Origin: Microgenomates group bacterium
GTDB taxonomy: Bacteria; Patescibacteriota; Microgenomatia; PFEM01; JBNASD01
Direction of reading: 5' to 3'
Assembly (NCBI GenBank): GCA_049720225.1
Contig: JBNASD010000001.1
Span: 15,162 to 79,161 of the forward strand
DNA length: 64,000 bases
The number at the start of each line of letters is the position of its first letter. The first letter of the stretch is position 1. Of this stretch, positions 9,052 through 55,128 are shown in pieces. Below the pieces are notes generated by a model. It was not told the origin of the DNA, ran no database searches, and saw only the letters and a program-made list of their open reading frames with translations. The translations under genes were made by a program, and so were the position numbers.

Positions 9052-9433
9052 AAAATTAGCAGAAGAATGGATTAAGGCAGCAGAACATGATTTAGATTGG
9101 GCAGAGGGAAGCTTAAAATTAAAAAAATTTGCCGGTGTTTGTTTTTTATCTCAGCAAGTAGTTGAAAAGTCGCTTAAGGCTTTTTTGTACTCTCATGGTG
9201 AAAATTTAAAAAAAATACACGACTTAGATAAACTTTTAATTTTAGCAATTAAGTATGCTCCTGAATTAGAAAGATTTAAAATAGCAACCGCTACTCTTTC
9301 TAGTTATTATTTACAAACCCGCTATCCCGATATTGGTAATATTGAGATTTTTAATAAAAAAAAATTAGCTGAAGAAGCTTTTGGTTGGGCAAAAGAAATT
9401 TTTAATATTATTAAAAATAAAATTAAAAAATAA
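9032..9433 (+). CDS. HEPN domain protein (HepT-like toxin partner)
   Basis: 133 aa. HEPN (PF05168-type) C-terminal ...LSSYYLQTRYPD. It overlaps the MNT gene by 20 nt, and its TAA is immediately followed by the proS ATG. Confidence 0.7.
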   Translation: MTKVIFKKLAEEWIKAAEHDLDWAEGSLKLKKFAGVCFLSQQVVEKSLKAFLYSHGENLKKIHDLDKLLILAIKYAPELERFKIATATLSSYYLQTRYPDIGNIEIFNKKKLAEEAFGWAKEIFNIIKNKIKK

Positions 9434-19867: not shown

Positions 19868-20521
19868 GTGAATAAAAAAGGTAAGTTAAATATTCTTTTG
19901 ATTTTGACTTTAGGGATAACCTTTTTATCTTTTACCGCGATAATTTTTTTGGTCATTCTTTTCAATATTAGTAGCGCTCAATATCTGAAACAGCTAAAAA
20001 AACAAGAGCCACAACTTCCCAACCAAGAAACGGTAAAACCAAGTGAAGTGTTAAATAAAAAATCGTTTTATTCCGGAAAAAAGATTATTTTAAGAGGAAA
20101 AGTAATTCAAGAATCGGTAGTCTGCGAGAAAAAAGAATGTCCCAATGATGATCCCTGTTGTGGTTGTCCTTCAGAAAGAGATTTATTGATAATTGATTCA
20201 GATGCCCTTTTAACTTCAAAAACCAAAGAGGCTTTAAAACTATTAGGTAAAGATAGTGAGAGTTTTTGCCAACGAGAGAAAGGAAGTTGTCGTTATTTGT
20301 GTTCTGGATGGAATAGTGGAGCTCTCTATGATGTTTATGGTGAATTTTGGGCAGAAGCGCCTCCGCCAGGTTGGAATAAATCGCTAGAATATTATTTTAC
20401 GGTTGAGGGAAAAAATTTGGTAAAAACACAAAATTTTGGAGAGAGAGTTAATGTTTTGATTGAAGAAGTGAAAGGAATATTTAAAAACCTACGAACTAGT
20501 GGTTATTATGTTTTGCCATAA
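19868..20521 (+). CDS. hypothetical secreted/membrane-anchored Cys-rich protein
   Basis: N-terminal TM/signal anchor, then 11 Cys (CEKKECPNDDPCCGCP...CQREKGSCRYLCSGW). 217 aa. Confidence 0.5.
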   Translation: MNKKGKLNILLILTLGITFLSFTAIIFLVILFNISSAQYLKQLKKQEPQLPNQETVKPSEVLNKKSFYSGKKIILRGKVIQESVVCEKKECPNDDPCCGCPSERDLLIIDSDALLTSKTKEALKLLGKDSESFCQREKGSCRYLCSGWNSGALYDVYGEFWAEAPPPGWNKSLEYYFTVEGKNLVKTQNFGERVNVLIEEVKGIFKNLRTSGYYVLP

Positions 20522-24906: not shown

Positions 24907-25590
24907 TTAGCCTACGATTTTCTCCAAACTTCCATTCAAAATATTTTCCAAATCATACCAGGATTTTTTCAGTCGATGATCGGTTACCCGATTTTGGGGG
25001 AAATTATAAGTACGAATTTTTTCTGCCCTCATTCCTCGGCCAATAGCCGAGCGATAACCAGCAATCGTTTGTTCTTTTTTAAGCTCTTCTGCTTCCCAAA
25101 TTTTACTTCGTAAAAGCTGTAAGGCTAATTCTCGATTTTGAAATTGTGATCTTTCTTGTTGACAAACAACCGTAATTCCCGTTGGTTTATGAGTTAATCT
25201 TACAGCGGAATTAACCTTTTGAACGTTTTGTCCTCCCTGAGAAGAGGCGCGGAAAAATTGCCAATCCAAATCGGCGGGATTAATTTTAATTTCTTCTTCT
25301 TTAATTTCCGGTAAAACAACAACCGTTGCGGTTGAAGTGTGAATTCGGCCATATCTTTCCGTTTTGGGAACTCGTTGAACTCGGTGGACTCCTGATTCGT
25401 TTTTTAGTTTTTGATAAATATCAGGAGGACCGCTGATTTTTAAAATTCCACCACTTAAAATTTCTGCCTTCCATCCCTGTTTTTCGGCAAAGCGATAATA
25501 CATTCTTAACAAATCATCGGCCCAAATTTTGGCTTCTTCACCACCGACACCAGGACGAATTTCAATGATGACAAAGCGAGAATTATTCAT
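24907..25590 (-). CDS. class I peptide chain release factor, RF1-like (PxT = PKT, GGQ), lacking N-terminal domain 1
   Basis: 227 aa. It aligns to E. coli RF1 from about residue 105 to the end (EIRPGVGGEEA..., GVHRVQRVPKTE, SSQGGQNVQK, RTYNFPQNRVTDHR). There is no room for an N-terminus, because rpmE ends 10 nt upstream. Confidence 0.75.
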   Translation of the reverse strand: MNNSRFVIIEIRPGVGGEEAKIWADDLLRMYYRFAEKQGWKAEILSGGILKISGPPDIYQKLKNESGVHRVQRVPKTERYGRIHTSTATVVVLPEIKEEEIKINPADLDWQFFRASSQGGQNVQKVNSAVRLTHKPTGITVVCQQERSQFQNRELALQLLRSKIWEAEELKKEQTIAGYRSAIGRGMRAEKIRTYNFPQNRVTDHRLKKSWYDLENILNGSLEKIVG

Positions 25591-25600
25591 AATTTATTTT

Positions 25601-25918
25601 TTATTCTTTAGAAGGTTTTTTGATTCTTCTTTTAAGCATTTCTTTGAGGCTAAGCGGTTTTTCTTCTTTGATTTCTGCTTTTCGGCGATCTTTTTTCTTT
25701 TGGTAGGGTTTAGCTTTAGCTAAGGCGACTTTCTTTTGGAATTTTTCCACTCTTCCTTGGGTATCAACAAATTTCATTTTACCAGTAAAAAAGGGGTGAC
25801 AATGAGAACAAACCTCAACGTTAATTTCTGGCAGAGTAGAACCCACGGTAAAAGTATTTCCACAAGTACAAGTTACTTTGGCTTCGGGATACCATTTTGG
25901 ATGAATATTTGGTTTCAT
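25601..25918 (-). CDS. rpmE: 50S ribosomal protein L31 with ~40-aa Lys-rich C-terminal extension
   Basis: [23 protein letters not shown]...[11 protein letters not shown] is the L31 core. The tail [23 protein letters not shown]... is extra. Confidence 0.85.
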
Positions 25919-25931
25919 AAAATTAATTTTA

Positions 25932-29233: not shown

Positions 29234-30542
29234 AATTCCTCCGCATTCTGACGAGGCAGAAGCGTCGGTTTTAGGGGCAATTTTGATTGATAAAGATGCG
29301 ATTGTCGCAGTAGCGGAGTTTCTAAGACCCGAGCATTTTTATAATCAACAAAACGGCTTAATTTATGAAGCCATTCTTCATCTTTACGAAGAGAGAAAAC
29401 CAATTGATTTGGTGACTTTAAAAGATGAGCTTAAAAAAAGAAAAATCCTTTCTAAAGTTGGCGGTTCTTCTTATTTAGCAGAGTTAGTTAATCAAGTTCC
29501 CACTGCTGCCCATGTTGAAGAATATGGATTAATAATTAAGGATAATTACACTAAAAGAGAGTTAATTTCTGCGGCTGCCCGAATTACCGAAGAGGCTTTT
29601 GATGAAGGAAAAGAAGCCCGTAAGGTTTTAGATGATGCTGAGCAGGCAATTTTTGCTTTATCACAAAAACATTTAAAAGAAGGATTTTTGCCGGTTAAAG
29701 AGATTCTAGCAGAAAGTTTTGATCGTTTAGATGAACTTCATAAAACCGCGGGGGGATTAAGGGGGGTTCCTACCGGATTTAAGGATTTAGATGATACTTT
29801 GGCAGGAATGCAGGATTCTAACCTTTTAATTTTGGCTGCCCGTCCGGGTTTGGGAAAAACTGCTTTTGCCCTAGAAATTGCTCGTCATGTAGCGGTAAAA
29901 GAAAAATTACCCGTTGGTTTTTTCTCTTTAGAAATGAGTAAAGAAGAGTTAGTAGACAGACTTTTGGTTTCTCAGGCGGATATTGATGCTTGGAAGTTAA
30001 AAACTGGTCGTTTAAGCGAGGATGATTTTACGCGATTGTCGGAAGCGATGGGAATTTTGGCGGAGGCGCCACTATTTATTGACGATACTCCCGCTTTAAC
30101 TATTTTAGAGATGAGAACTAAGGCTCGTCGGTTAATGGCGGAACATGGGTTGAGGTTATTAATTGTTGATTATTTACAATTAATGAAAAGTGTAAGACAA
30201 TTGGAAAATCGCGTTCAGGAAGTTTCGGAAATTTCGATGGGATTAAAAAATTTAGCTCGGGAGTTAAAAATTCCTGTTTTGGCAATTTCTCAACTTTCTC
30301 GAGAGGTGGAAAAAAGAGGAAAAAAACGACCTCAACTGGCAGATTTAAGAGAGTCCGGATCAATTGAACAAGATGCGGATGTAGTGATGTTTTTATGGCG
30401 GGAAGACGATGATGATTTAGAAAACGTAGAATTAGAGGTTGCCAAACACCGTAATGGACCATTAAGAAGGATAAAACTTCGCTTCCGCGGTGATCGGATT
30501 AAATTTTATGGAGTAGAGACAAAAAGGAGTGAGGAAGAATAG
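29220..30542 (+). CDS. dnaB: replicative DNA helicase DnaB
   Basis: DnaB N-terminal domain (EASVLGAIL); Walker A ARPGLGKT; RecA fold. TAG stop at 30540..30542. Confidence 0.9.
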   Translation: MPEVKIPPHSDEAEASVLGAILIDKDAIVAVAEFLRPEHFYNQQNGLIYEAILHLYEERKPIDLVTLKDELKKRKILSKVGGSSYLAELVNQVPTAAHVEEYGLIIKDNYTKRELISAAARITEEAFDEGKEARKVLDDAEQAIFALSQKHLKEGFLPVKEILAESFDRLDELHKTAGGLRGVPTGFKDLDDTLAGMQDSNLLILAARPGLGKTAFALEIARHVAVKEKLPVGFFSLEMSKEELVDRLLVSQADIDAWKLKTGRLSEDDFTRLSEAMGILAEAPLFIDDTPALTILEMRTKARRLMAEHGLRLLIVDYLQLMKSVRQLENRVQEVSEISMGLKNLARELKIPVLAISQLSREVEKRGKKRPQLADLRESGSIEQDADVVMFLWREDDDDLENVELEVAKHRNGPLRRIKLRFRGDRIKFYGVETKRSEEE

Positions 30543-30628
30543 TGCCGCGGGAGGGAGTCGAACCCTCACGGCCTTTAAAGACCACGGGTTTTTGAGACCC
30601 GCCTGTCTGCCAATTCCAGCACCGCGGC
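30543..30628 (-). tRNA. tRNA-Leu (anticodon CAA), type II with long variable arm; CCA not encoded
   Basis: Manually folded. Acceptor GCCGCGG/CCGCGGC, D-loop with GG, anticodon stem CGGGT/ACCCG with loop CTCAAAA, a variable-arm hairpin, T-arm GAGGG-TTCGACT-CCCTC, discriminator A. Confidence 0.8.
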
Positions 30629-42572: not shown

Positions 42573-44279
42573 ATGACACCTGCCCGGAATATTGCCGATA
42601 TTTTAGCGGAAAAGGGAGTATTAACTAAAAAAGATCTTGAAAAAGTTAAACTTGAGGAGATAAATACGGGAAAGCCGGTTAAAGAAATTCTTAAAGAATT
42701 TCATCTTGCAGATGAAGAACAAATTGCTCAAGCAGAAGGAGAATTGTGGAAAGTTCCTTATGTGAATTTAGCGGAAACTCCCTTTTCTCCTCAAGCTTTA
42801 AATTTTTTATCTCAAGCGGTAGCGGAAGAATATAATGTAATTCCTTTTCAATTTGACTCTTCAACTAATGAACTTGCTGTCGCTTTAGAAAATCCCCTAG
42901 ATTTAGATTTAATTAAATTTTTAGAAAAAAAGACAGGAACAAAAATAAAACCTCACATTGCTTCCCCTACCCAAATTAAAGAAGCGATTGAATCTCATTA
43001 TGGTCAAAGCTTGGTAGCAGAAATTAAGGCCACTTTGGGAGAAACTAAAGTTACTCCTCAACAACCTCAACCTACTTATATTCCACGACCGGGAGAGGTT
43101 TTGAGGGAAGAAAAAATTGCCCGAGTAGTTAATATTATTTTAGAATTTGCGGTAAAATCGAGAGCGTCTGATATTCATATTGAACCTCAAGAAGAAAATA
43201 CTCGGGTAAGATATCGAATTGACGGCATTCTTCATGAGAAATTGGTTTTACCTAAATATCTTCATGATGCGGTTGTTTCCCGGGTAAAAATTCTTTCGGG
43301 AATGAGAATTGATGAAAAAAGGGTACCTCAGGATGGTCGATTTAGCTTTAAAGCAGAGGATCAGGAAATTGATTTGCGGGTTTCTTCTTTGCCGACTGTC
43401 CATGGAGAGAAGATTGTGATGAGGTTACTTAAAAAAACTGGTCAGGTTCCTGATTTGCCAGAATTAGGCTTAAGAGGAAGGGCCTTAAAAGATTTACAAG
43501 AAGCAATTTTAAGACCTCACGGAATTATTATTGTTTGCGGACCTACCGGTTCAGGAAAGACGACTACCCTATATTCAGTTCTTTCGCGAATTAATACTCC
43601 CCGCGTAAATATTATTACTTTGGAAGATCCCGTGGAATACGAAATTCCCGGCGTTAATCAAGTTCAAGTTAATCCGGCGGCGGGTTTAACTTTTGCTTCG
43701 GGAATGCGCTCTTTTTTGCGGCAAGATCCTAACATTATTATGGTAGGAGAAATTAGAGATCGAGAAACTACGGAATTAGCGGTTCAGGCTTCTTTAACTG
43801 GACATTTGGTTTTTTCTACTCTTCACACTAACAATGCTGCTCAGGCAATTCCTCGCCTTTTGGATTTAGGAGCAGAACCATTTTTACTTGCTTCCTCAGT
43901 TACCTGTTTAGTGGCTCAGCGAATTTGTCGAAGAATTTGTCCAGATTGTAAGGAAGAATATTCTCCTCCACCAGAAGTAATTGAAGATATTAAAAAAGTC
44001 TTAGGAAAACTTTTTCCTCCTCAAAAAGAAACAAAACTTTATCGGGGTAAAAAATGCGCTACCTGTAACAACACAGGTTATTTAGGAAGGATAGGAATTT
44101 TTGAAGTATTGCCAATTAGTGAAAAAATTGCTAGACTGATTTTAGAAAGAGCGTCTGCCCGAGAGATTGAAAAACAGGCAAGAGAAGAAGGGATGGTTAC
44201 TATGAAGCAAGATGGATATTTAAAAGTTTTAGAGGGGATTACTACTATTGAAGAAGTTTTAAGGGTAGCGCAAGAGTAA
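42573..44279 (+). CDS. pilB: type IV pilus assembly ATPase PilB/GspE
   Basis: N-terminal GSPII_E_N domain, Walker A GPTGSGKTTT, tetracysteine CRRICPDCK...CATCNNTG. Confidence 0.9.
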   Translation: MTPARNIADILAEKGVLTKKDLEKVKLEEINTGKPVKEILKEFHLADEEQIAQAEGELWKVPYVNLAETPFSPQALNFLSQAVAEEYNVIPFQFDSSTNELAVALENPLDLDLIKFLEKKTGTKIKPHIASPTQIKEAIESHYGQSLVAEIKATLGETKVTPQQPQPTYIPRPGEVLREEKIARVVNIILEFAVKSRASDIHIEPQEENTRVRYRIDGILHEKLVLPKYLHDAVVSRVKILSGMRIDEKRVPQDGRFSFKAEDQEIDLRVSSLPTVHGEKIVMRLLKKTGQVPDLPELGLRGRALKDLQEAILRPHGIIIVCGPTGSGKTTTLYSVLSRINTPRVNIITLEDPVEYEIPGVNQVQVNPAAGLTFASGMRSFLRQDPNIIMVGEIRDRETTELAVQASLTGHLVFSTLHTNNAAQAIPRLLDLGAEPFLLASSVTCLVAQRICRRICPDCKEEYSPPPEVIEDIKKVLGKLFPPQKETKLYRGKKCATCNNTGYLGRIGIFEVLPISEKIARLILERASAREIEKQAREEGMVTMKQDGYLKVLEGITTIEEVLRVAQE

Positions 44280-44281
44280 AA

Positions 44282-45337
44282 ATGAAAATAGAAGAATTAC
44301 TAGAAATAACCATCAATAAAAAAGCGTCTGATCTTCATTTAATTGTTGGCTTGCCTCCTACTGTAAGGGTAAATGGAGAATTATTTTCTATACCGGGAAA
44401 GGAGACTTTAACGGAAAGTTTAGTAAAGGATCTGATTTTTAGCATTTTAAGCGAAGAACAAAAAGAAATTCTTTTAGTTAATAAAGAACTGGACTTTTCT
44501 TTTGATTATCAAGGGAGAGGAAGGTTTAGAGTTAACGCTTATCATCAAAAAGGAACATTAGCGGCGGCGTTTCGTCTTTTGCCCCCCACCATTCCTTCCA
44601 TTAAAGAAGTAAATCTTCCGGATATTTGTTATTCTTTTGCCGAACTAAAACAAGGATTTATTTTAGTTACTGGACCCACGGGTCATGGAAAATCAACTAC
44701 TCTTGCAGCCACCATTGAGGAAATTAATAAAAATAGACCGGTGCATATAGTCACTATTGAGGATCCTATCGAATATGTTTTTTGTCCCAAGAAAGCAATT
44801 ATTTCTCAGAGAGAGATTCGGACTGATACCCATTCCTGGCAAATTGCCTTACGGTCTTGTTTGCGTGAGGATCCAGACGTGGTAATGATTGGCGAAATGA
44901 GAGATTACGAAACGATTGCCTCTGCCTTAACTATTGCCGAAACGGGTCATTTGGTTTTTGCTACCCTTCACACTAATTCTGCGGCTCAAACGGTGGATAG
45001 AATTATTGATGTTTTTCCTGAAGAACAACAGACTCAAGTAAGGATGCAACTTTCTAATACTTTAGAAGCAATTCTTTCTCAAAGACTCTTGCCTTGTCTA
45101 GATGGAGGAAGAATTCCTGCTTTTGAAATCTTAACCGCTACACCAGCGGTAAGGACCGCTATTCGTGAAGGAAAAACCCATCTTATTGATAATATTATTC
45201 AAACTTCAGTAGAGTTAGGAATGAGAACTTTAGAAATGGATCTAGCTTGGTTAGTTAAACAGGGAAAAATTGATTTAGAAACCGCAAAAGCGTATGCCTT
45301 AAAGCCAGAAGAACTAATACGGTTAGTTAGGAAATAA
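44282..45337 (+). CDS. pilT: twitching-motility retraction ATPase PilT
   Basis: 351 aa. GPTGHGKSTT; the TIEDPIEY, AIRE-like region. Confidence 0.9.
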   Translation: MKIEELLEITINKKASDLHLIVGLPPTVRVNGELFSIPGKETLTESLVKDLIFSILSEEQKEILLVNKELDFSFDYQGRGRFRVNAYHQKGTLAAAFRLLPPTIPSIKEVNLPDICYSFAELKQGFILVTGPTGHGKSTTLAATIEEINKNRPVHIVTIEDPIEYVFCPKKAIISQREIRTDTHSWQIALRSCLREDPDVVMIGEMRDYETIASALTIAETGHLVFATLHTNSAAQTVDRIIDVFPEEQQTQVRMQLSNTLEAILSQRLLPCLDGGRIPAFEILTATPAVRTAIREGKTHLIDNIIQTSVELGMRTLEMDLAWLVKQGKIDLETAKAYALKPEELIRLVRK

Positions 45338-45339
45338 AA

Positions 45340-46545
45340 ATGGAAAAATTTGATTACAAAGCTAAAGATGAAAGTGGAAAAACAATTCAGGGAGTAGTTG
45401 AAGCGTCGTCAGAGAAAGAAGCAGTTAAAATTCTCCGCGCTCGTAAGCTTCTGGTAATTTCTTTAAAACAAAAAAAAATAAATGCTATCGAAGAACTTCG
45501 TGAAAGAGCTTTTTCAAGAATCAGTTTAAACGATAAAGTTAATTTTACGCGTCAATTTTCAACAATGATTACTGCCGGTCTTCATATTACCGAGGCGTTG
45601 GAAATTTTAGAACTTCAATCCCCTCCAGGATTAAGAAGAGTGGTTAGAGAAGTATTAAAAGATATTGAAGGAGGAAAGAGTTTGTCCCAAGCAATAGAAA
45701 AACATCCAGAAGCATTTGATACTCTTTATGTGTCTTTGGTAAAAGCAGGAGAAACCGCTGGAGTTTTGGAAAAGGTTTTGTCTCGCTTAGCAGATAATAT
45801 GGAGAAACAAAAAGAATTTCAGGGGAAGGTAAAGGGAGCAATGATATATCCAGCGATTGTAATTTTTGGAATGATTATAGTGGCGGGAATTATGGTAATT
45901 TTTGTTTTACCAAAAATGATGACTATTTATGAAGAATTTCAGGCACAACTTCCTACTTCGACAAAAATCCTTTTAGCCATTTCTAAATTCGCTACTAAAT
46001 TTTGGTGGTTAATGTTAGCTTTTGTTTTTGGCGGAATAATTGGATTAAGAATTCTTTTTCGAAGCCCAGAATTCAAAAAAGAATTTGATCGATTTTTGTT
46101 TCGAATACCAATTATTGGTAATTTAAGACAGAAGTCGGTTTTAACAGAATTTACCCGTACTTTAGGATTATTAACTAACGCAGGAATTTTAATTGTTGAT
46201 GCTTTACATGTTGCTTCCCGATCTTTGGGAAGTAAATTTTACCAAGAGGCAGTTTTAAAAGCAGCAGATCAAGTGGAAAGAGGAGTACCTTTAGCAACTG
46301 CCTTAGCAGAAATAGGTATTTTCCCCCCCATTTTGCCGCAAATGATTTCCGTAGGAGAAGAAACAGGAAAAATCGATGAGGTTTTGTTTAAAATTTCTCA
46401 TTATTTTGAGCAAGAAACCGAAGCGGCAATTAAAGCCTTGACAAGCGCCATGGAGCCAATTATTATGATTATATTAGGAATTGGAGTGGCATTCTTAATG
46501 ATTTCAGTAATAATGCCAATTTATAACTTAACCTCGCAATTCTAA
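45340..46545 (+). CDS. pilC: type IV pilus platform protein PilC/GspF
   Basis: 401 aa, two GspF repeats, 3 TM. Confidence 0.9.
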   Translation: MEKFDYKAKDESGKTIQGVVEASSEKEAVKILRARKLLVISLKQKKINAIEELRERAFSRISLNDKVNFTRQFSTMITAGLHITEALEILELQSPPGLRRVVREVLKDIEGGKSLSQAIEKHPEAFDTLYVSLVKAGETAGVLEKVLSRLADNMEKQKEFQGKVKGAMIYPAIVIFGMIIVAGIMVIFVLPKMMTIYEEFQAQLPTSTKILLAISKFATKFWWLMLAFVFGGIIGLRILFRSPEFKKEFDRFLFRIPIIGNLRQKSVLTEFTRTLGLLTNAGILIVDALHVASRSLGSKFYQEAVLKAADQVERGVPLATALAEIGIFPPILPQMISVGEETGKIDEVLFKISHYFEQETEAAIKALTSAMEPIIMIILGIGVAFLMISVIMPIYNLTSQF

Positions 46546-46627
46546 ATTAGGCCTTGACAAAGAAGATTTAAAAATTATAAAAAGATTTATAAGAAAAAAT
46601 GATAAAGAAAGGAGGTGAGAAAAAAGA

Positions 46628-47188
46628 ATGAAAAAAGTAAAAGGTTTTACCATGATTGAGTTGTTGATTGTAATTGCGGTTTTAGGAATTTTAGCAGTAG
46701 CTGTTTTAGCAGCTATTAATCCTATAGAACAAATAAATCGAAGTAGAGATACTGGGAGTCGTTCTGATGCGGAACAACTTATAGGGGCTATTGACCGCTT
46801 CTACACCGCTAATGGTTATTATCCTTGGGTTGATAGTGCCGATAACCCTGATTATGATCAACCATGGAGAAAAGTAGATATGACTTGGGTAGATAATTTA
46901 GGAAATTCTGTACTTACCAAACTTTCTGATCCTACTCAAGGAACAGCAGAAATTAAAGAATCGTTTGTGGATAGAATTACTGATTCAGAATATAATTCAC
47001 TTTATATTTATAACAACGGTCAACAGGGAGGAAGTACTTATGTCTGTTTTATGCCAAAATCTGCTAACTTTTTGAATGAGGCCAACAGGAGAGCGGGACA
47101 AAATTGTGCTGGATTGCCACCCGATTTACAAACAGCAGGGTGTGACAATATTTGCCCGGGCGGAAAGTGCTTTTCATGTTTGCCATAA
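46628..47188 (+). CDS. prepilin-type pilin (186 aa)
   Basis: Class III signal KGFTMIELLIVIAVLGILA (G/F cleavage, Glu+5). Six Cys at the C-terminus. Confidence 0.8.
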   Translation: MKKVKGFTMIELLIVIAVLGILAVAVLAAINPIEQINRSRDTGSRSDAEQLIGAIDRFYTANGYYPWVDSADNPDYDQPWRKVDMTWVDNLGNSVLTKLSDPTQGTAEIKESFVDRITDSEYNSLYIYNNGQQGGSTYVCFMPKSANFLNEANRRAGQNCAGLPPDLQTAGCDNICPGGKCFSCLP

Positions 47189-47247
47189 AATCTGGAAAAG
47201 AATAAAGGCGAGAAAGAAGACTTAGTTGAATAATTAATAATCAAAGA

Positions 47248-48030
47248 ATGACTTTCTCTTTACCATTAGTATTGTGTGTCTTGGGGCTTTGTGTAGGAAG
47301 TTTTGTTAATTGCTTAGTTTGGCGGCTACATCAGGGATTATCGCCAATTGGGGGGAGGTCGATTTGTCCGTCTTGTAAAAAACAGATTCGTTGGTATGAT
47401 AATATTCCGTTGGTTTCTTTTGTGTTGCTTAAAGGGCGGTGTCGAGATTGTCATTCGCCTATCCCCTATCATTATCCGTTAGTGGAATTATCTGGTGGAA
47501 TTTTAACTTTAATAGTTTTTTATTCTCAAGGAATTTTTCTGAAGGAGAATTTTTTGTTTTTAATTTTCAATTTATTAATTACTTACCTTCTTTTGGCAAT
47601 TTTTCTTTCTGACTTGCTTTATATGACTATCCCTGACCAAATAGTTTTCTCAGGAATAATAATTTCTTTAGTTTTTTTATTTTTAACATATCCCCTTTCA
47701 GAAATTTTTAAGTTTTTAATTTCTGGTTTTGTTTTTGCTGGATTTTTTTATTTATTGCGTTTATTTACCAAAGGCAAAGGAATGGGTTTAGGGGATGTAA
47801 AATTAGCTGGATTAATGGGTTTAGTTTTAGGTTGGCCAAAAATTTTGGTTGCTTTTTATTTTGCCTTCTTGACAGGAGCAATCGTTGGTGTCATACTGAT
47901 TTTATTAAGAAAAAAAAGGTGGGGTGAACATATTCCATTTGGGCCATTTCTAAGTGGAGCAACTTTTATTAATTTAATTTGGGGAAATGAAATATTAAAA
48001 TGGGCAGAAAAAATTTTGGGCTTACTTTAA
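47248..48030 (+). CDS. pilD: prepilin peptidase PilD (A24) with N-terminal Zn-binding CxxC...CxxC
   Basis: CPSCKKQ...CRDCHSPI; multi-TM; the DxxxGxGD region (GMGLGDVKLAG). Confidence 0.85.
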   Translation: MTFSLPLVLCVLGLCVGSFVNCLVWRLHQGLSPIGGRSICPSCKKQIRWYDNIPLVSFVLLKGRCRDCHSPIPYHYPLVELSGGILTLIVFYSQGIFLKENFLFLIFNLLITYLLLAIFLSDLLYMTIPDQIVFSGIIISLVFLFLTYPLSEIFKFLISGFVFAGFFYLLRLFTKGKGMGLGDVKLAGLMGLVLGWPKILVAFYFAFLTGAIVGVILILLRKKRWGEHIPFGPFLSGATFINLIWGNEILKWAEKILGLL

Positions 48031-48797
48031 TAGAACTATTAATAGTACTCGCTACGTTAGCAATTTTAATTACGTTATCTTTTTTTACTTTTAAAACCCA
48101 AATGGCCAAAGGTAGAGATGGTCGACGAAAGGCGGATTTAAATAAACTTCAGAAAGCATTAGAAGATTATATGAATGACCATGGCTGTTATCCTAATCCT
48201 GAGGAAATTACTACCAACAATATTATTTGTGGCGGATCGTTCTCTCCTTATTTAACTCAACTCCCTTGTGATCCGATTAATAATTCTTACTATAATTTTT
48301 TTTATTCCTATGATCAGAGAGAAGATTGTAAAACGTGGTATAAAATTTACGCAAAGTTTGAATACGACAAAGATTTAATTATCGAAAAAGTTGGTTGTAA
48401 AAATGGATGTGGACCGGTTAAAAATTATAATTATTGGGTTTCTAGTCCTAATATGACTGAAGTTAATCAGATTGCCGAAGCAGAAGATTGGTGGCCAAAA
48501 GAAATAGCCGTTAAAAATACGTTAGTAACACCGTCTTCTTCTATTTCGCCTTCCTTAACTCCATCTTTTACAGCAACGCCTACTTTATTTTCGACTCCCT
48601 CTCTTATTCTTACTCCTCCTTTAATTTGTGATTCTGGCTATTACTCTTATTGCCAAAACGGAGATTGTATATATTATGGAACAATGCCCCCCCTTCACTG
48701 TAATATTTATTATTGCTGTATAGGAGAAAATAATTGTAATTGTGCTCAGGGGGCGTGTAGAAATGAATTTGGTCAACCGATAAATAATTGCTATTAA
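48000..48797 (+). CDS. prepilin-type pilin with S/T/P-rich linker and Cys-rich C-terminal module (candidate tip adhesin)
   Basis: GLTLIELLIVLATLAIL signal; a pilin core YKIYAKFEYDKD; a TLVTPSSSISPSLTPSFTATPTLFSTPSLILTPP linker; then ICDSGYYSYCQNGDCIYYGT...CCIGENNCNCAQGACRNEF...NNCY. It overlaps the pilD 3' end by 31 nt. Confidence 0.7.
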   Translation: MGRKNFGLTLIELLIVLATLAILITLSFFTFKTQMAKGRDGRRKADLNKLQKALEDYMNDHGCYPNPEEITTNNIICGGSFSPYLTQLPCDPINNSYYNFFYSYDQREDCKTWYKIYAKFEYDKDLIIEKVGCKNGCGPVKNYNYWVSSPNMTEVNQIAEAEDWWPKEIAVKNTLVTPSSSISPSLTPSFTATPTLFSTPSLILTPPLICDSGYYSYCQNGDCIYYGTMPPLHCNIYYCCIGENNCNCAQGACRNEFGQPINNCY

Positions 48798-48812
48798 TAA
48801 ATAAATAAAAAT

Positions 48813-49259
48813 ATGGAAAATAATCAAGATAAAGGCTTTACTTTAATTGAACTTTTGGTGGTAATTACAATTTTAGGAATTTTAGCGGTGATTGGTTTGG
48901 GAAGTTTTTCTTCTTCACAAATGAAAGGACGAGATGCTCAAAGAAAAAACGATCTTTCCCAAATTCAAAAAGCCTTAGAAATGTATTACAATGATAATGG
49001 ATCTTATCCTTTAACCAATCAAATGCAAACACTTTTAAACACCGGTGGGTCATGGACAGCCGCCGGAGGAAGTACTATTTATATGAAAACTGTACCTAAA
49101 GGACCAAAAGGAGATGTTTATTGTTATGAAAGTGATGGAAGTTATTATAGACTTTATGCTAAACTGGAAAATGTGAGAGATCCAAAAATTATTACACCGC
49201 AAAGTAGTATATGCGCTAGTTATAATTACGGAGTTTCCAGTAGTAACATAACGCCATGA
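48813..49259 (+). CDS. prepilin-type pilin paralog A
   Basis: [19 protein letters not shown]; shared core [27 protein letters not shown]; Cys pair. Confidence 0.8.
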
Positions 49260-49332
49260 ATAAAAAATTTTTAACCAAAAAAGGTTTTACTTTAATTGAA
49301 CTTTTAGTGGTGATTTCTATTATTGGGATTTT
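49256..49332 (+). repeat. 77-nt direct repeat (pilin 5' end), second copy at 49756..49832, 76/77 identical
   Basis: Direct comparison: ATGAATAAAAAATTTTTAAC[C/A]AAAAAAGGTTTTACTTTAATTGAACTTTTAGTGGTGATTTCTATTATTGGGATTTT. Confidence 0.9.
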
Positions 49333-49735
49333 AACCGCTTTAATTATGGTTAATTTTAATGCTGCTCGAGAAAGAGCAAGAGATGCTCAAAGAAAATCGG
49401 ATTTGGATCAAATTAAAAAGGCATTGAGGATGTATTATAATGATTTCGGAGTTTACCCTCAGAATGATTCAAGTAATAAAATTAGAGGATGTAATCCGTT
49501 AGTGACTTTTAATTGGGGAACTCCATTTACCTGTGGCGGGATGAGTTATATGAAAATTCTTCCTCAAGATCCTAGTGAGGGAAGAACTTATAAATATCTT
49601 CAAACATCTTCGGGTAATGATTTTTGCTTATGGACTACATTAGAAAACAAATCAGATGGTGATATTAATAAATCTAAAAACCGCTGTTTAAATTGTTCTG
49701 TAGGAACATATGATTACGTGGTATGTGCAGATTAA
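49256..49735 (+). CDS. prepilin-type pilin paralog B
   Basis: [26 protein letters not shown]. The ATG overlaps the upstream TGA (ATGA). Core [27 protein letters not shown]. Confidence 0.8.
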
Positions 49736-49755
49736 TTTTAAAAAAAATTTAAAAG

Positions 49756-50193
49756 ATGAATAAAAAATTTTTAACAAAAAAAGGTTTTACTTTAATTGAA
49801 CTTTTAGTGGTGATTTCTATTATTGGGATTTTGGCTTCATTAGCTTTAGCGAGTTACAGCAGTGCTCAAAAACAAGCCCGTGATGCCCAAAGAAAAAGTG
49901 ATTTAAATCAATATAGAATTGCTTTAGAAAATTATGCGGTAGCTAATAATGGCCTTTATCCAATTTTGACTTATCCTAATCCGATAGGAAATATTTGCCC
50001 CTCCCCTCTTAGCGGTAAATTTATTAGTAGTTGTATTGATGATCCTTTGTCAGATAGAAACTATTATTACGGCTCAAACGGGACAATATATATTCTTTAT
50101 GCTAATTTAGAAAAAGGAGGTTATTGGTATATTTGTTCTAATGGAAAATCAGGAGAGGTTTCTTCCTCTCCAAATTTAAATCTTTGCCAATGA
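49756..50193 (+). CDS. prepilin-type pilin paralog C
   Basis: The first 77 nt are identical to paralog B except for 1 nt. Core [19 protein letters not shown]. Confidence 0.8.
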   Translation: MNKKFLTKKGFTLIELLVVISIIGILASLALASYSSAQKQARDAQRKSDLNQYRIALENYAVANNGLYPILTYPNPIGNICPSPLSGKFISSCIDDPLSDRNYYYGSNGTIYILYANLEKGGYWYICSNGKSGEVSSSPNLNLCQ

Positions 50194-50606
50194 AAAAAAA
50201 AGGTTTTACTTTAATTGAACTTTTAGTTTCGCTATCGATTATTGCTATTTTAATAGGGTTAGCATTGGTTTCTTATCAAGGTGCTCAAAGATCTTCTCGG
50301 GATGGGAGAAGAAAAGCAGATTTAGAGCAAATTCGTAGCGCTTTGGAAATGTGTCGAACTGATACCGGAAGTTATCCTTCGGGAACCTTAGTTTCCGGTA
50401 ATAATATAACTTGCGGATCGGTGACTTATCTTACTATTCCTTCTGACCCTCTTTCTGACCGTCAATATGTCTATACTAATATAGATAGAACTTCCTATAC
50501 CCTCTGTGCTGCTTTAGAAAATGGAGCAGGAACAGTTACTGGATGTGGTTCGTGTGCTAAACCCAATAGTTCTGTTGTTTGTAATTATAAAGTGACTAAT
50601 CCTTAA
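50190..50606 (+). CDS. prepilin-type pilin paralog D
   Basis: [21 protein letters not shown]. The ATG overlaps the upstream TGA (ATGA). Core RDGRRKADLEQIRSALEM. I place the start at this ATG; the listed ORF begins at 50184 with a TTG. Confidence 0.8.
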   Translation: MKKKGFTLIELLVSLSIIAILIGLALVSYQGAQRSSRDGRRKADLEQIRSALEMCRTDTGSYPSGTLVSGNNITCGSVTYLTIPSDPLSDRQYVYTNIDRTSYTLCAALENGAGTVTGCGSCAKPNSSVVCNYKVTNP

Positions 50607-50610
50607 ATGA

Positions 50611-51111
50611 ATGAAAAAAAATCTTTTTTTAAATTTTGGGTTTACTTTAATTGAACTTCTTGTTGTTATTTCTCTTATCGGAATTCTTTTTGGGTTTGGA
50701 GTGGCTCAGTATGTTCAATTTAATCGTCGCCAGGTAGTTGAACAAACCGCTTTAGATTTAAAAAATAATCTTCGTTTAGCGCAAACCCAAGCTTTAGGAG
50801 GAAATAAACCAGTAGGTTGTTCTTTTTTACTTGGATATAAAGTAGTTTTTTTTCAAGGAAGCGTTGAAAATAATACTCCCGATGGTTATCTTATTAAAGC
50901 AATTTGTTCAGAAGGAGAAATAGGAGAAAAAAGATTTACTTTTCCTTTGGTGGTAAGATTTTCTCCCCTCCCCTCCCCTCCTTCGGTAGTTTTTAAAGTT
51001 TTGGGACATGGAACCGATTTAGAAAATGAATTGGAAATTAAATTAAAAGGGTTTAATAACGATTCTTATATTAAAACGGTTATTATTACTTCATCAGGAG
51101 AAATTAGATAA
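50611..51111 (+). CDS. minor pilin (GspH/FimT-like pseudopilin)
   Basis: [18 protein letters not shown]; 166 aa. Confidence 0.65.
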   Translation: MKKNLFLNFGFTLIELLVVISLIGILFGFGVAQYVQFNRRQVVEQTALDLKNNLRLAQTQALGGNKPVGCSFLLGYKVVFFQGSVENNTPDGYLIKAICSEGEIGEKRFTFPLVVRFSPLPSPPSVVFKVLGHGTDLENELEIKLKGFNNDSYIKTVIITSSGEIR

Positions 51112-51489
51112 ATGAAGGATAAAAAGGGACAAGCATTGTTTGAAGTAGTAATTGCTATTGGGGTAATTTTGATTTTGGTGGTTGCTTTAATTATTACTGC
51201 TACTTATTCTTTAAGGAATGCGGAATTCTCTCGAAGTCAAATGCTAGCAACGAAATATGCGCAGGAAGCAATAGAAAAGATTCGTTTGTTTAGAGATAAT
51301 AATCCTTGGAATACATTTATTCTTCAGTGTAACTCTTTTGACTTAGGAATGAATTTACCTTCAAATTTTTCTTTAACAAGGCAATGTTTTTGTCTTTCTG
51401 ATATTTGTGAGGTTAAGATTGTTATTAATTGGCAAGACAGTAAAGGAAATCATAAATCAGAATTAACCACTAAAATTACGAAAAAATGA
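51112..51489 (+). CDS. minor pseudopilin (GspI/PilV-like)
   Basis: KGQALFEVVIAIGV, i.e. G/Q with Glu+5. 125 aa. Confidence 0.55.
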   Translation: MKDKKGQALFEVVIAIGVILILVVALIITATYSLRNAEFSRSQMLATKYAQEAIEKIRLFRDNNPWNTFILQCNSFDLGMNLPSNFSLTRQCFCLSDICEVKIVINWQDSKGNHKSELTTKITKK

Positions 51490-51995
51490 AAAAAAACGGC
51501 TTTACTTTATTAGAAATGATGATTGTGATTACTATTTTAGCCTTAATTGCGGTTGTGGGAAGTGGTTCTTTTTTCTCTATTTTACGAGGATCAACTAAGA
51601 CTAAAAATCTTTCTTTAGTAAAACAAAATGGTGATTACGCCTTATCAGTAATGGAAAGAATGATTAGAAATGCTCGGAGTTTAAAAGCTCCAACAACTAG
51701 CGGGCCGACCGATTCAATTTTAATTGTTAATCCCGACGGTGGGGAAACTCTTTTTAAATGTGATTCAACTACTGATCCACCAACTATCTCTTCAGGAAGT
51801 GCTTCTTTAATTAGCAATGAAGTAAAAGTCAGTTCTGATTGTAATACCTTTTTTAATGTGGTATTGGGAAGAAAAGAATTAGAATCAACCCGAATAGATA
51901 TTTCTTTTACTTTAGTCCCCAATAAAGAAATAGAGCGGCCTGAAGAAAAAGCAGAAATTAACTTTAAAACTTCAGTGACAATGAGAAATTATTGA
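51486..51995 (+). CDS. minor pilin
   Basis: KNGFTLLEMMIVITILALIA; 169 aa. Confidence 0.7.
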   Translation: MKKNGFTLLEMMIVITILALIAVVGSGSFFSILRGSTKTKNLSLVKQNGDYALSVMERMIRNARSLKAPTTSGPTDSILIVNPDGGETLFKCDSTTDPPTISSGSASLISNEVKVSSDCNTFFNVVLGRKELESTRIDISFTLVPNKEIERPEEKAEINFKTSVTMRNY

Positions 51996-52033
51996 CAAGG
52001 TTATTTAATGATTGTTATGATTAAGATAATTGA

Positions 52034-52861
52034 ATGAAAAATAGAGGGCAAAGTTTAATAATTATCCTTTTAATTGCCGCCGTTGGTTTAACGATTGGTT
52101 TAGCGGTAATTTCTCGTTCTGTAACCGATATAAATATTTCCCAACAAGAGGAGGAGTCAGCTCGTGTTTTCTCCGTTGCTGAGGCAGGAATAGAGGAAGC
52201 GATTAGAGCTGGCGATGTTCCTTCTGGAGGGATTACTATCGGAGAGATAACAGCGACAGTAGAGAAACAATCATTAGGAGGAGGTCAAGAATTTGTTTTT
52301 CCTGGTGAATATGAAGCGGGTGATATTCAAACTCTTTGGTTAATTGGCCATGATGAACAAGAGAATTTAAACGAAAATATAAGGTATAATGGTTCTAGTC
52401 TTATTTTTTATTGGGGTAAAGAAGGACAAAGTGCCGACCAAAATACCACCCCTGCTTTAGAAGTGACTTTAATTTATAAAGATGGAAATACCTTCAAAAT
52501 TAAAAGAGGGGTTTATGATCCTAATTCTTCGCGAAGAGCAAGCAATCATTTTGATGCGCCCGATACTGGTACACCTCCTTATGTGGTTGATGGAAAAAAA
52601 TTTCAATTTAAAAAGGAAAACTTTGGACTGGTAACAGGAACTATTCCTTATTTAGTAAGGTTTCGTTTGATTTATAATAATGAACCACAAATAATAGGTG
52701 TTAAGGGAACCACCAATCTTCCTCAACAAGGAATTTGTTTTATTTCTACCGCTACCTCTCCCAATGGAATTACTCGTCGAGTAAAGCAATGTAATCTTTA
52801 TAAGTCACCTCCAGGAATTTTTGATTATGTTTTATATTCTGAAGAAAATTTAGCAAAATAA
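52034..52861 (+). CDS. large minor pilin lacking Glu+5 (PilX/GspK-like)
   Basis: NRGQSLIIILLIAAVGLTIGLAV signal-like N-terminus with no Glu at +5. 275 aa. Confidence 0.5.
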   Translation: MKNRGQSLIIILLIAAVGLTIGLAVISRSVTDINISQQEEESARVFSVAEAGIEEAIRAGDVPSGGITIGEITATVEKQSLGGGQEFVFPGEYEAGDIQTLWLIGHDEQENLNENIRYNGSSLIFYWGKEGQSADQNTTPALEVTLIYKDGNTFKIKRGVYDPNSSRRASNHFDAPDTGTPPYVVDGKKFQFKKENFGLVTGTIPYLVRFRLIYNNEPQIIGVKGTTNLPQQGICFISTATSPNGITRRVKQCNLYKSPPGIFDYVLYSEENLAK

Positions 52862-52870
52862 CCTGCCCAT

Positions 52871-53884
52871 ATGGAAATTTTTGGTTTAGATATTGGTTCC
52901 CATACCATTAAACTTGTCCAACTAACTAAAAAACAAGATAAATATGAGCTTATTGCTTTTCATTCTGCTGAAACTCCTCCTCGGGGATTAAATTCTGATG
53001 CAGAAAGTGATTTAAATAATTTAGCAGAAATCATTAAAAAAATTCATCAAGAAGCAAAAGTAAAAACCAAAAATGTAGTTAGCGCTCTTTCCCAAGATCA
53101 GGTTTATACTCGATTGATTAATCTTCCTCCTCTTTCGGAAAGCGAATTAGAATCTGCCTTAAAATGGGAGGCAGAACAGTATGTCCCCCTTCCATTAGAA
53201 GAAGTAATTTTGTCTCATCAGGTAGTAGGAAAGAAGATTGAAGAAGGAAAGGAAAAAATTGAAGTAATTCTTGCGGCTGCTCCCACTAGATTGGTAGAAA
53301 AATTGATTAAAGTTCTCAAAACCGCCGGATTAACTCCTGTAAGTTTAGAAATGGAGATTGCTGCTGCCGCTCGAAGTGTTGTTTATCCTGAAATTAAAAG
53401 AGCAATGTTGATTGATCTAGGAGCAAAAGCTACTGATTTAGCAATTATTGAAGAAGGAAAAATTGCCTTAGTTCATTCTTTACCTACCGGCGGAGAAGCT
53501 TTAACGAGAGCCTTAGAATTTGAATTAGGATTAGAAACTATACAAGCAGAAGCTTACAAAAAGGCTTATGGGTTAGAAAAAGAAAAGCTAGAAGGAAAAA
53601 TTAGCGAAGCGATTACCCCGGTTTTAGAAAAAATTACTAATGAAATAGAAAAAACAATTAATTTTTATCAAAGTCAACAAAAAACAATTGATCAAATTAT
53701 TTTAATAGGAGGAACCGCTAATTTGCCAGAAATAAGTAGTTTTATGGCTAAAAAAATTGGTTTAGAAGTTCAAGTAGGTAATCCTTTTGCCCGAATAATT
53801 AATAGTAATCTAGCCGCTAAAATTTCCTCTGAAATGTTTCCCTTATATGCAGTGGCGATTGGTTTAGCAATGAAAGAAATTTAA
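52871..53884 (+). CDS. pilM: type IV pilus assembly protein PilM (actin-like ATPase fold)
   Basis: MEIFGLDIGSHTIKLVQL; 337 aa. Confidence 0.85.
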   Translation: MEIFGLDIGSHTIKLVQLTKKQDKYELIAFHSAETPPRGLNSDAESDLNNLAEIIKKIHQEAKVKTKNVVSALSQDQVYTRLINLPPLSESELESALKWEAEQYVPLPLEEVILSHQVVGKKIEEGKEKIEVILAAAPTRLVEKLIKVLKTAGLTPVSLEMEIAAAARSVVYPEIKRAMLIDLGAKATDLAIIEEGKIALVHSLPTGGEALTRALEFELGLETIQAEAYKKAYGLEKEKLEGKISEAITPVLEKITNEIEKTINFYQSQQKTIDQIILIGGTANLPEISSFMAKKIGLEVQVGNPFARIINSNLAAKISSEMFPLYAVAIGLAMKEI

Positions 53885-53894
53885 CTTTAAAAAG

Positions 53895-54440
53895 ATGGAA
53901 AACATTGATTTTCTTCAGGAATTTAAAAAAAAAGAAAAAATAAAGGAAAAATACTCTCCCTTTATTAAAAAAGGATTTTTGTTTTTTGCTTTTCTTTATT
54001 TATTAACTGTTTTTACAGTTTTCTTTTTCTTTCTTTATTATAACCAAGAAAGCAAAAAAGTTTCTTTCTTAATAGAAGAGAAAAAGAATAGAATTAAACA
54101 ATTAGAAAAAAGGGAATCACTTCAAGTTTTAATTAAACAAAGAATCTCTTTTTTGAGCAAAATAATTAATTCCCGGAAAATAGATTTTGTAAATAAAGTT
54201 GCCTATTTAGCTTCTTTAGAAGAAAAAAATAATATTATTTTTAAAAAAATAGAATTTAAAGAGAATGGAGTGGTTTTAGTAAGTGGTACTACGTCGGACG
54301 TAAAAATTTTTAGAAATTTTTTAAAAAATTTAGAAAATGACTCCTATTTTGATCAAATTGATGTTGACTCTATAAAACGCGGAAAAGATGGAAGTTATGA
54401 CTTTAGTCTTTCGCTTGGAAAAAATGAAGAAAAAAAATAG
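53895..54440 (+). CDS. PilN-like bitopic membrane protein
   Basis: Short cytoplasmic N-terminus, one TM, a coiled-coil periplasmic part. Placed after pilM. Confidence 0.55.
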   Translation: MENIDFLQEFKKKEKIKEKYSPFIKKGFLFFAFLYLLTVFTVFFFFLYYNQESKKVSFLIEEKKNRIKQLEKRESLQVLIKQRISFLSKIINSRKIDFVNKVAYLASLEEKNNIIFKKIEFKENGVVLVSGTTSDVKIFRNFLKNLENDSYFDQIDVDSIKRGKDGSYDFSLSLGKNEEKK

Positions 54441-55128
54441 TCCTAACAATATTCAAGAAATAATTAAAAAATACAGCTTTCTTTTAATCGTCTTTTTGAT
54501 GGTTTTTTCTTTTTTATTTCTAATAAAACCTAAAATAACTCAAATATTAGAAATCAGGAAAAAAATAGAAAATGATAAAAAAACTTTGAAATTTTTGACA
54601 GAAAAAACTTTTCTTTTAGAAAGCTTAAATGAGGCGGATTTAATAAGTAGGTCAGAAAAGATTTTAAAGGTTTTACCAGAAGAAATTAATTTACCTTTAG
54701 TTTTAGGTAATATAAGAGCGATTGCTAATAATGAAGGAGTTAATATTAGCAGAATTAATGTTAATTTAACTTCCGATAAAAAAGAGGAATTAAAGGTAAT
54801 AGGTTTTGATTTAACCATTCAAGGAAATAAAGAAGGAATAAAGAACTTTTTGAAAGAAATAGAAGAAAGCGCCCCCTTAATGGATATTAAATCGTTGAGA
54901 ATAGAAGTAGTTGATAAAAACGAGGAGGTAAATTTAAAATTAGACACTTATTATTTAACACTCCCTAAAACGTTAGGAAAAATTGATGCGCCGGTGGTTC
55001 TTTTAACAGAACAGGAAGAAAAACTTTATCAAGATCTTTCTCGTTTTAGCCAAAAATTCTTTATGGGGGAAGGAGGTTTTGAAATTACCTCCGACCAAAT
55101 AGGAAAAGAAAATCCCTTTTCTTTTTAA
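54388..55128 (+). CDS. PilO-like bitopic membrane protein
   Basis: One TM, coiled coil, C-terminal ferredoxin-like region. Assigned mainly on position. Confidence 0.5.
   Translation: MEVMTLVFRLEKMKKKNSPNNIQEIIKKYSFLLIVFLMVFSFLFLIKPKITQILEIRKKIENDKKTLKFLTEKTFLLESLNEADLISRSEKILKVLPEEINLPLVLGNIRAIANNEGVNISRINVNLTSDKKEELKVIGFDLTIQGNKEGIKNFLKEIEESAPLMDIKSLRIEVVDKNEEVNLKLDTYYLTLPKTLGKIDAPVVLLTEQEEKLYQDLSRFSQKFFMGEGGFEITSDQIGKENPFSF

Follow-up and report, generated by a model that had tools for sequence, protein, structure and literature searches.

More than 1,200 modular pilins have been catalogued. They form a documented class, already widespread and diverse, in which a module grafted on a type IV pilin mediates adhesion (PMC8179133). 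Streptococcus sanguinis PilB (with a vWA module) and PilC (with a lectin module) are lower-abundance members encoded in the pil operon (PMC8179133, PMC9934059), while CofB and TcpB, which are type IVb minor pilins, join a pilin domain through a flexible linker to extra C-terminal domains that bind ligands or adaptors (PMC8179133). Here we analyse a stretch of 64,000 nucleotides (hereafter the window; G+C content 34%) from the metagenome-assembled genome (MAG) of an uncultured, ultrasmall Microgenomates bacterium, in which a gene at 48000..48797 of the forward strand, starting inside the prepilin peptidase gene pilD, encodes a modular type IV pilin made of a pilin head, a linker rich in serine, threonine and proline, and a small cysteine-rich C-terminal module. 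The protein is thus an extension of a known principle.

What goes beyond the described examples is the graft of a cystine-rich mini-domain, the long Thr/Pro stalk, the pilD-overlapping position held across a class of the Candidate Phyla Radiation (CPR), and a cassette-type replacement of the module between nearly identical carriers. Unlike S. sanguinis PilB and PilC, which carry large known folds behind a short loop, the window family has an apparently orphan cystine-rich domain of 40-60 residues on a long disordered Thr/Pro/Ser stalk; its head is GspG-like, its hypervariable module is exchanged as a cassette and its gene is locked to the 3' end of pilD. CofB and TcpB resemble the window pilin in overall plan, but their extra domains are large (beta-repeat and beta-sandwich), trimerise at the tip and have no cystine knot, and no cassette variation has been reported for them. 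In sequence and in fold, the head is most like GspG, PulG and EpsG, the major pseudopilins of the type II secretion system (T2SS); GspG proteins, however, have neither the C-terminal linker nor the module, and the window operon, with PilT and PilM/N/O, is of the type IV pilus (T4P) kind.

Two further systems invite comparison. In Neisseria PilE, a conserved N-terminal part carries a disulfide-bounded hypervariable D-region, which is replaced by recombination from pilS cassettes. The window family would share with it the conserved pilin N-terminal part and the recombinationally replaced, disulfide-stabilised, exposed hypervariable C-terminal region, but in Neisseria silent copies within the genome itself act as donors and the variation is internal to the head, whereas here it affects a separate appended domain and is seen between genomes or populations. 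Fungal CBM1 and bacterial cellulases with a PT-box plus a carbohydrate-binding module (CBM) display a small, disulfide-stabilised, Tyr-rich module on an often O-glycosylated Ser/Thr/Pro linker. Conserved aromatic positions (YYGC...PNY) add to the likeness, but there the carrier is an enzyme and not a pilin, and the search for a sequence or fold match to the window module gave none. A 2026 preprint on CPR 'Pam' pili deals with a different, donor-strand-exchange system, and our literature search found no paper describing this pilin family.

A modular pilin gene that begins inside pilD

The gene and its parts are as follows.

48000..48797, forward strand: modular type IV pilin gene, ATG start, 265 residues plus stop (NCBI MGB9911054.1)
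47248..48030, forward strand: pilD, prepilin peptidase / N-methyltransferase, 260 residues (Pfam A24_N_bact 9.2e-29, Peptidase_A24 2.3e-16)
48000..48030, forward strand: dual-coding overlap of 31 nucleotides, the last 10 pilD codons; the other frame encodes the leader MGRKNFG and the first three mature residues
48000..48020, forward strand: class III leader MGRKNFG, with the motif G/LTLIE (the stroke marking the cleavage site) and Glu at +5; predicted PilD cleavage after Gly7
48021..48497, forward strand: pilin module, residues 8-166, alpha1 helix and GspG-like globular head with six conserved Cys (AlphaFold2, alignment)
48522..48623, forward strand: Ser/Thr/Pro-rich linker, residues 175-208, predicted disordered (22 of 34 residues Ser, Thr or Pro)
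48624..48794, forward strand: Cys-rich C-terminal module, residues 209-265 (57 residues; 10 Cys, 8 Tyr, net charge -3), a putative orphan small beta-rich domain

A TGA lies in frame four codons 5' of the ATG at 48000, which makes this ATG the sole start ahead of the signal peptide, so that the overlap with pilD is real. The protein is deposited, with the same sequence, as 'MAG: type II secretion system protein [Microgenomates group bacterium]' on a 466-kb contig. Its prepilin N-terminus (MGRKNFG followed by LTLIELLIVLATLAILITLSFF) has the features of a class III pilin, namely Gly at -1 and then a hydrophobic stretch with Glu at +5; the +1 residue is Leu, not Phe, and is F, L or V among relatives. 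Pfam N_methyl (PF07963) scores 24.1 bits on it, against a gathering cut-off of 21.2. The product of the overlapped gene shows the PilD motifs CxxC...CxxC and GxGD.

An earlier note on this DNA had proposed, from the sequence, a fusion of a pilin with a 34-residue Ser/Thr/Pro linker and a Cys-rich module, beginning 31 nucleotides inside pilD. The fusion is genuine: the architecture is conserved among relatives, so that the open reading frame (ORF) does not result from chance, and both lengths, like the module sequence quoted, are exact. The 12 Cys attributed to the module were a miscount; the module has 10 and the whole protein 16, with six in the head. Co-translation with the peptidase had also been read from the overlap, which does argue for translational coupling but does not imply a mechanistic need for joint synthesis.

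Two predicted folded parts and a disordered linker

Modelled with AlphaFold2 (AF2) on the family alignment, the head has a helix at residues 10-61 and strands at 101-103, 115-118 and 145-148, with predicted local distance difference test (pLDDT) values above 90, and thus shows the lollipop fold of pilins, a long alpha1 helix on a beta-sheet head. In the full-length model, residues 167-206 fall below pLDDT 50 and the module lies at 70-88. Structure prediction of the module, which the earlier note had suggested, gave pLDDT 84 and three short beta-strands when the module was run alone with 24 related modules. The model is one of two confidently folded parts separated by a disordered linker, with a module predicted to fold independently. 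This two-part model, together with a head-only orthologue (see below), agrees with the definition of a modular pilin as a pilin module with a distinct C-terminal module. The compositional bias of both C-terminal segments is strong: Ser/Thr/Pro enrichment of the linker relative to the window proteome has P = 3e-11, and Cys enrichment of the module (10 of 57 residues, background 0.73%) has P = 1e-11. The linker DNA contains no tandem repeats.

The head ends in the motifs GCxxGCGP.NYNYWVSSPNM and EDWWP. A fold search of the PDB with the head returned PulG, EpsG and Clostridioides difficile PilA1 as the best matches, all weak (E 0.2-5). Since the window pilin scores 20.5 bits with T2SSG (PF08334; cut-off 21) and 38.4 with TIGR01710 (cut-off 88.85), the head is GspG-like, yet not a GspG equivalog.

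No relative of the module was recognised by sequence or by fold. Foldseek gave a best E of 3.3, Pfam scans of 25 modules and a sequence profile search of the PDB were without match, and phmmer with the 60-residue module against 1.84 billion representatives yielded five matches, all spurious, to repeat proteins in which many weak stretches add up to the score. Searching 5.8 billion proteins with a 25-module profile gave nothing at E 0.01 or better, but a 50-column profile cannot reach significance in a database of that size. Knottins, CBM1, hevein/CBM18, EGF and defensins gave no significant profile or fold match. As nothing matched by sequence or fold, we call the module an orphan domain, apparently a bacterial family of extracellular cystine-rich mini-domains not described before, although searches of this kind are all weak for some 55 residues. 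A phage origin was also considered and rejected, tblastn against 50,697 phage records being without match.

A conserved family and a conserved position

A search of the 5.8 billion proteins identified 82 homologues, about 70 of them 215-285 residues long. In an alignment of 48, the head is strongly conserved, with six Cys and the motifs GCxxGCGPSxNYNYWVSSPNM and E(D/L)WWP, and 46 of 47 relatives continue with a T/P-rich stretch (5-61 residues) and a Cys-rich end (35-119 residues). The absence of the module from orthologues, which the earlier note had named as a finding that would speak against its reading, is therefore limited to one case, P0062 of locus L089. When one genome per GTDB species was scanned, 80 loci emerged, mostly in Microgenomates lineages (Shapiro-, Roizman-, Beckwith-, Gottesman-, Pace- and Cerribacteria), and a few labelled Peregrinibacteria or Paceibacterota. 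Many species-representative MAGs with this operon are titled 'uncultured Gammaproteobacteria', 'Pseudomonadales', 'Nevskiaceae' or 'Omnitrophota' (L005-L014, L020, L023 and others), labels that are probably wrong.

The genomic position is conserved as well. In 26 of the 30 pilD-bearing loci, pilD is followed by the gene of a pilin of 210-316 residues whose last 60 residues contain 6-12 Cys, and in 22 of these 30 the Cys-rich pilin overlaps the 3' end of pilD, by 1-61 nucleotides. The exceptional P0062 (L089, 3001-3462) occupies the same slot, with a 4-nucleotide pilD overlap on a 90-kb contig, but is reduced to a head of 153 residues, and the next pilin gene begins 12 nucleotides 3' of it. Another orthologue, P0027, has almost no linker, and two loci (L007, 5959-6909; L008, 5965-6900) encode proteins of 311-316 residues with 22 Cys in which a second short T/P stretch separates two tandem Cys modules. 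These variants indicate that head, linker and module are separable building blocks, and the tandem forms that modules can be stacked.

Even cysteine counts

Even Cys numbers (6, 8, 10, 14, 16 or 18) occur in 68 of the 69 distinct modules. The exception belongs to a frameshifted copy, P0001, so that all 68 intact modules are even; of the heads, 67 of 69 have an even count. Clustering by sequence separates the modules into at least 15 groups with several Cys spacings, a number that is a rough lower bound and not a classification, since the single-linkage procedure, run at 45% identity, drew unlike frameworks together into a group of 42. Parity across at least 15 clusters means that the rule holds over independent Cys frameworks. 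The YYGC-type subfamily, to which the window module belongs, has six invariant Cys in the pattern YYGCxxGxC...C.PNY...C...C...PxNxC. The even counts, together with the extracytoplasmic location of a pilin, suggest that all Cys are paired, so that the window module would be held by five disulfides and the head by three. Méheust et al. (10.1101/335083) reported an enrichment of CPR genomes in MdbA-like oxidoreductases accompanied by VKOR, and suggested that these play a part in pilin folding.

Replacement of the module between nearly identical carriers

The module is hypervariable. Between the window and L002, the heads are 65% identical and the modules 28%, other operon proteins ranging from 31 to 80%. 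In some pairs (e.g., P0004/P0025 and P0020/P0028), heads that are 90-96% identical carry modules at background identity (22-33%) with differing Cys frameworks. At the DNA level, contigs L087 and L088 are 90% identical through pilD, head and linker, then dissimilar for about 195 nucleotides, then 96% identical, and the same break and resumption is seen in L085 and L086, which both come from JGI metagenome 3300022548. In both pairs, the similarity breaks off at the end of the T/P linker (residues 202-213) and returns precisely with the codons for GFTLIELL in the next pilin gene. The variable unit, i.e. the module with a short junction and the leader of the next pilin, behaves as a replaceable cassette. 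Homologous recombination could plausibly act on its flanks, which are conserved and occur repeatedly in these operons.

Neither the window nor the flanks of 83 loci yielded any silent copy of the module. A module-profile hmmsearch of the six-frame ORFs of the window and these loci matched only C-termini of the same pilin family, and a six-frame scan of the window for at least six Cys in 55 residues retrieved only zinc-finger regions, the tail of a 186-residue pilin and one unrelated ORF.

The module contains one homopolymer.

48687..48693, forward strand: C7 tract inside the module, one of three C7 tracts in the window (about 1.6 expected)

A Logan contig of 1.25 kb (L084, encoding P0001) is identical to window positions 47911-49166 save for C7 shortened to C6 and, about 220 nucleotides downstream of the tract (~48905) in the next gene, T5 shortened to T4; each deletion truncates a pilin gene. 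Two homopolymer deletions in so short a contig point to read error rather than phase variation. This is the sole frameshifted copy, so that the splitting of the frame in other strains, the other finding that would have told against the earlier note, comes down to a probable sequencing artefact. Phase variation at the C7 tract is the less likely reading, given the second indel and the lack of enrichment of C7 tracts.

The type IV pilus operon

The gene belongs to a complete T4P operon of the order pilBTC-pilin-pilD-pilins-pilMNO, syntenic in L001 and L002. Besides pilD and the modular pilin gene, it comprises the following.

42573..46545, forward strand: pilB (568 residues), pilT (351 residues) and pilC (401 residues), i.e. 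assembly ATPase, retraction ATPase and platform protein (orthology to L001/L002)
46628..47188, forward strand: upstream pilin of 186 residues, probable major pilin (Pfam N_methyl 2e-8)
48813..50606, forward strand: four GspG-like pilin paralogues of 148, 159, 145 and 140 residues (Pfam N_methyl, T2SSG; NCBIfam TIGR01710-like matches)
50611..52861, forward strand: minor-pilin set, namely a GspH-like protein of 166 residues, a ComGE/GspI-like protein of 125, a GspJ-like protein of 169 and a protein of 275 (Pfam and NCBIfam matches)
52871..55128, forward strand: pilM, pilN and pilO (Pfam PilN and PilO; PilM_2 on the L001 orthologue, 74% identical)

PilB, PilT and PilC of the window are 67-82% identical to their L001/L002 orthologues, which carry Pfam T2SSE and T2SSF. 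The 275-residue protein has a hydrophobic segment at its N-terminus, and we presume that it forms a tip or priming complex with the GspH/GspI/GspJ-like proteins. The NCBI name 'type II secretion system protein' notwithstanding, the operon does not encode a T2SS: it holds a PilT-type ATPase of 351 residues together with PilM/N/O. The window ORFs scanned included no secretin, and neither a disulfide-forming enzyme nor a pilin glycosyltransferase was found in the 64 kb.

In the two close relatives L001 (2126-7251) and L002 (2158-7247), three genes are inserted between the orthologue of the 186-residue pilin and pilD, an insert lacking from the window (47188-47248). It encodes a GT-C glycosyltransferase of 672-677 residues (Pfam TMEM260_N, PMT_2), seen in the operon of these two loci only, which is a candidate O-glycosyltransferase for pilin or linker. 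Its position recalls the Pseudomonas aeruginosa glycosyltransferase genes tfpO and tfpW, which adjoin pilA.

The 186-residue pilin, which has six Cys within its last 50 residues, is the only one preceded by a perfect Shine-Dalgarno sequence (AAAGGAGGTGA, 46608-46618) and by a strong promoter-like site (TTGACA-17-TATTAT, 46438-46466), and a Shine-Dalgarno of the AAAGGAGGTGA type precedes its orthologues in six relatives. Ahead of the modular pilin there is only a GGGGA/GGGGAG stretch inside the pilD coding sequence. The modular pilin is probably expressed by coupling to pilD, and modestly. Given the strong ribosome-binding site of the 186-residue pilin, the latter is probably the major subunit and the modular pilin the lower-abundance one.

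Other features of the window

Several observations concern other parts of the window. An ORF of 227 residues at 24907-25590 (reverse strand) is release-factor-like, with PCRF (positions 98-194) and an RF-1 domain but without domain 1. As the gap upstream of it (25591-25931, reverse strand) encodes ribosomal protein L31, it is not a case of prfB-style programmed frameshifting. At 8719-9433 (forward strand), a nucleotidyltransferase (110 residues) adjoins a HEPN protein (133 residues), a pair resembling MNT/HEPN toxin-antitoxin systems among housekeeping genes. A 217-residue ORF at 19868-20521 (forward strand), without Pfam match, has a dense Cys cluster (CEKKECPNDDPCCGCPSE). ARAGORN predicts a tRNA-Leu(CAA) at 30542-30628 (reverse strand); a scan of the whole window at Rfam gathering thresholds reported no family.

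Proposed function and alternative explanations

Taking architecture and evolutionary pattern together, we consider it on balance probable that the gene encodes a bimodular type IV pilin displaying a hypervariable ligand-recognition knob on the pilus. Where diversifying or frequency-dependent selection acts on a specificity determinant, be it through partner recognition, through phage evasion or through both, this is the pattern to expect: a conserved carrier with an exchangeable, disulfide-stabilised, exposed end, and coexisting variants in one sample. The modules are net acidic in 61 of 68 cases and about 10-15% aromatic, with conserved Tyr positions, a composition that argues against DNA binding and is compatible with recognition of carbohydrate or protein. 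The gene had been put forward as a candidate host-attachment determinant; hypervariability and cassette replacement fit a role in recognition or attachment, but attachment itself we only infer.

The sequence of events might be as follows. From its conserved start within pilD, the T4P operon gene would be translated in coupling with the peptidase gene, at a modest level, the 186-residue pilin serving as the major subunit. PilD would cleave after Gly7 and methylate Leu8, as the motifs suggest, and the alpha1 helix and head would allow PilB, PilC and PilMNO to polymerise the protein into a pilus that PilT could retract. The disordered stalk of about 34 Thr/Pro/Ser-rich residues is predicted to part the head from the independently folded module of 57 residues, which five disulfides would hold together if the even counts are read as pairing. 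On this stalk, the knob would protrude from the filament, along the shaft as well as at the tip. The module evolves as a replaceable cassette, delimited on one side by the T/P linker and on the other by the conserved stretch coding for the signal sequence of the next pilin; nearly identical heads carry unrelated Cys frameworks, and two variants coexist within one metagenome. The knob would bind the surface of a partner cell or another surface, most likely a carbohydrate or protein rather than DNA, and cassette exchange would alter its specificity or aid escape from phages that target the pilus.

Several points weigh against this interpretation. The head-only P0062 shows that linker and module are dispensable for the role of the head in at least one lineage. 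The ligand-binding role would rest on architecture and evolutionary pattern, for a module without detectable relative of known function, and abundance and filament position solely on the strength of ribosome-binding sites and the type of head. Hypervariability could reflect escape from phages or predators and not a changing specificity. Finally, no Dsb, MdbA or VKOR gene lies within the 64-kb window, so that oxidative folding is undocumented for this genome.

Of the other explanations, the least improbable would be a strictly tip-located adhesin in the manner of S. sanguinis PilB or CofB/TcpB, with one or a few copies capping each pilus and binding to the host. The earlier note had leaned towards such a tip adhesin. 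The tip is the position generally proposed for modular pilins (PMC8179133), and the weak ribosome-binding site suggests low abundance. Yet the head is GspG-like, of the major-pilin type, as are its four downstream paralogues, the operon has a separate GspH/GspI(ComGE)/GspJ-like set with a fourth protein, the usual tip complex, and a module of about 6 kDa on a disordered linker of 34 residues would be sterically unproblematic on the shaft, so that there is no steric need for a terminal position. Raynaud et al. indeed allow for incorporation of modular pilins into the shaft, given a flexible linker (PMC8179133). A tip-only location is thus possible, but it is doubtful and we do not favour it. 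At the opposite extreme, the protein might be a major or co-major pilin, forming a bottle-brush pilus with knobs on possibly glycosylated stalks, a coat that mainly evades phages or predators. Its head is among the best-conserved pilin heads of the operon (50-72% identity) and GspG-like, its gene comes first among the pilin genes that follow pilD, and more than one variant is present in a single sample, as would occur under frequency-dependent selection on an exposed coat. We nevertheless regard this as rather improbable: the consensus Shine-Dalgarno and the promoter-like site belong to the 186-residue pilin, consistently across relatives, the modular gene is coupled to pilD, whose enzyme product is normally needed in small amounts, and a head-only orthologue exists.

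The remaining explanations are far less probable still. The conserved N-terminal part with hypervariable Cys frameworks of 40-60 residues mirrors the evolution of secreted cystine-knot peptides, and the Cys-rich end might be a defensin- or conotoxin-like effector, released or delivered, with head and linker as carrier or pro-region. This is very unlikely, as no cleavage motif was identified between linker and module, the module has no similarity to known toxin or defensin families, and display of the module on the pilus fully explains the architecture. Marginally less probable again, the protein might serve a competence pilus as its DNA receptor. A link between CPR T4P and DNA uptake has been drawn (10.1101/335083), and ComP, the model for such a receptor, is a disulfide-stabilised pilin; but one would expect a surface that binds DNA to be basic, and to be conserved rather than swapped for unrelated frameworks, and acidity prevails among the modules, including that of the window (-3). 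Lowest of all in our estimation stands a functionless extension, either a drifting low-complexity tail or an artefact of annotation or assembly. It would account for the lack of a database match, for the truncating frameshift in L084 and for the orthologue without module, but hardly for even Cys counts in 68 of 68 intact modules over at least 15 clusters, the invariant six-Cys core of the YYGC-type alignment, a confident AF2 fold and a reading frame kept in about 70 relatives, and the two homopolymer indels of L084 are typical of read error.

Returning to a pilus-displayed recognition knob, one might speculate further, with rather little confidence, that the pili of Microgenomates and of some other CPR bacteria carry a dedicated specificity slot: a conserved, pilD-coupled carrier whose cystine-knot mini-domain would be exchanged between populations by homologous recombination at two conserved flanks, the repertoire of cassettes, of at least 15 clusters, setting the range of hosts or partners of these episymbionts. 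Exchange of receptor-binding tips in phages and conotoxin-like diversification on a conserved pro-region would be analogous.

Implications

T4P are essential in cultivated Saccharibacteria, in which their role in attachment is an open question (PMC11665869). The pilin family described here is a concrete, testable candidate for how CPR/Patescibacteria find and hold their partner cells. At 40-60 residues, the module is short enough for synthesis or expression and for screening on cells and glycan arrays. Its cassette structure also provides a population-genomic marker, and module type could be correlated with co-occurring hosts.

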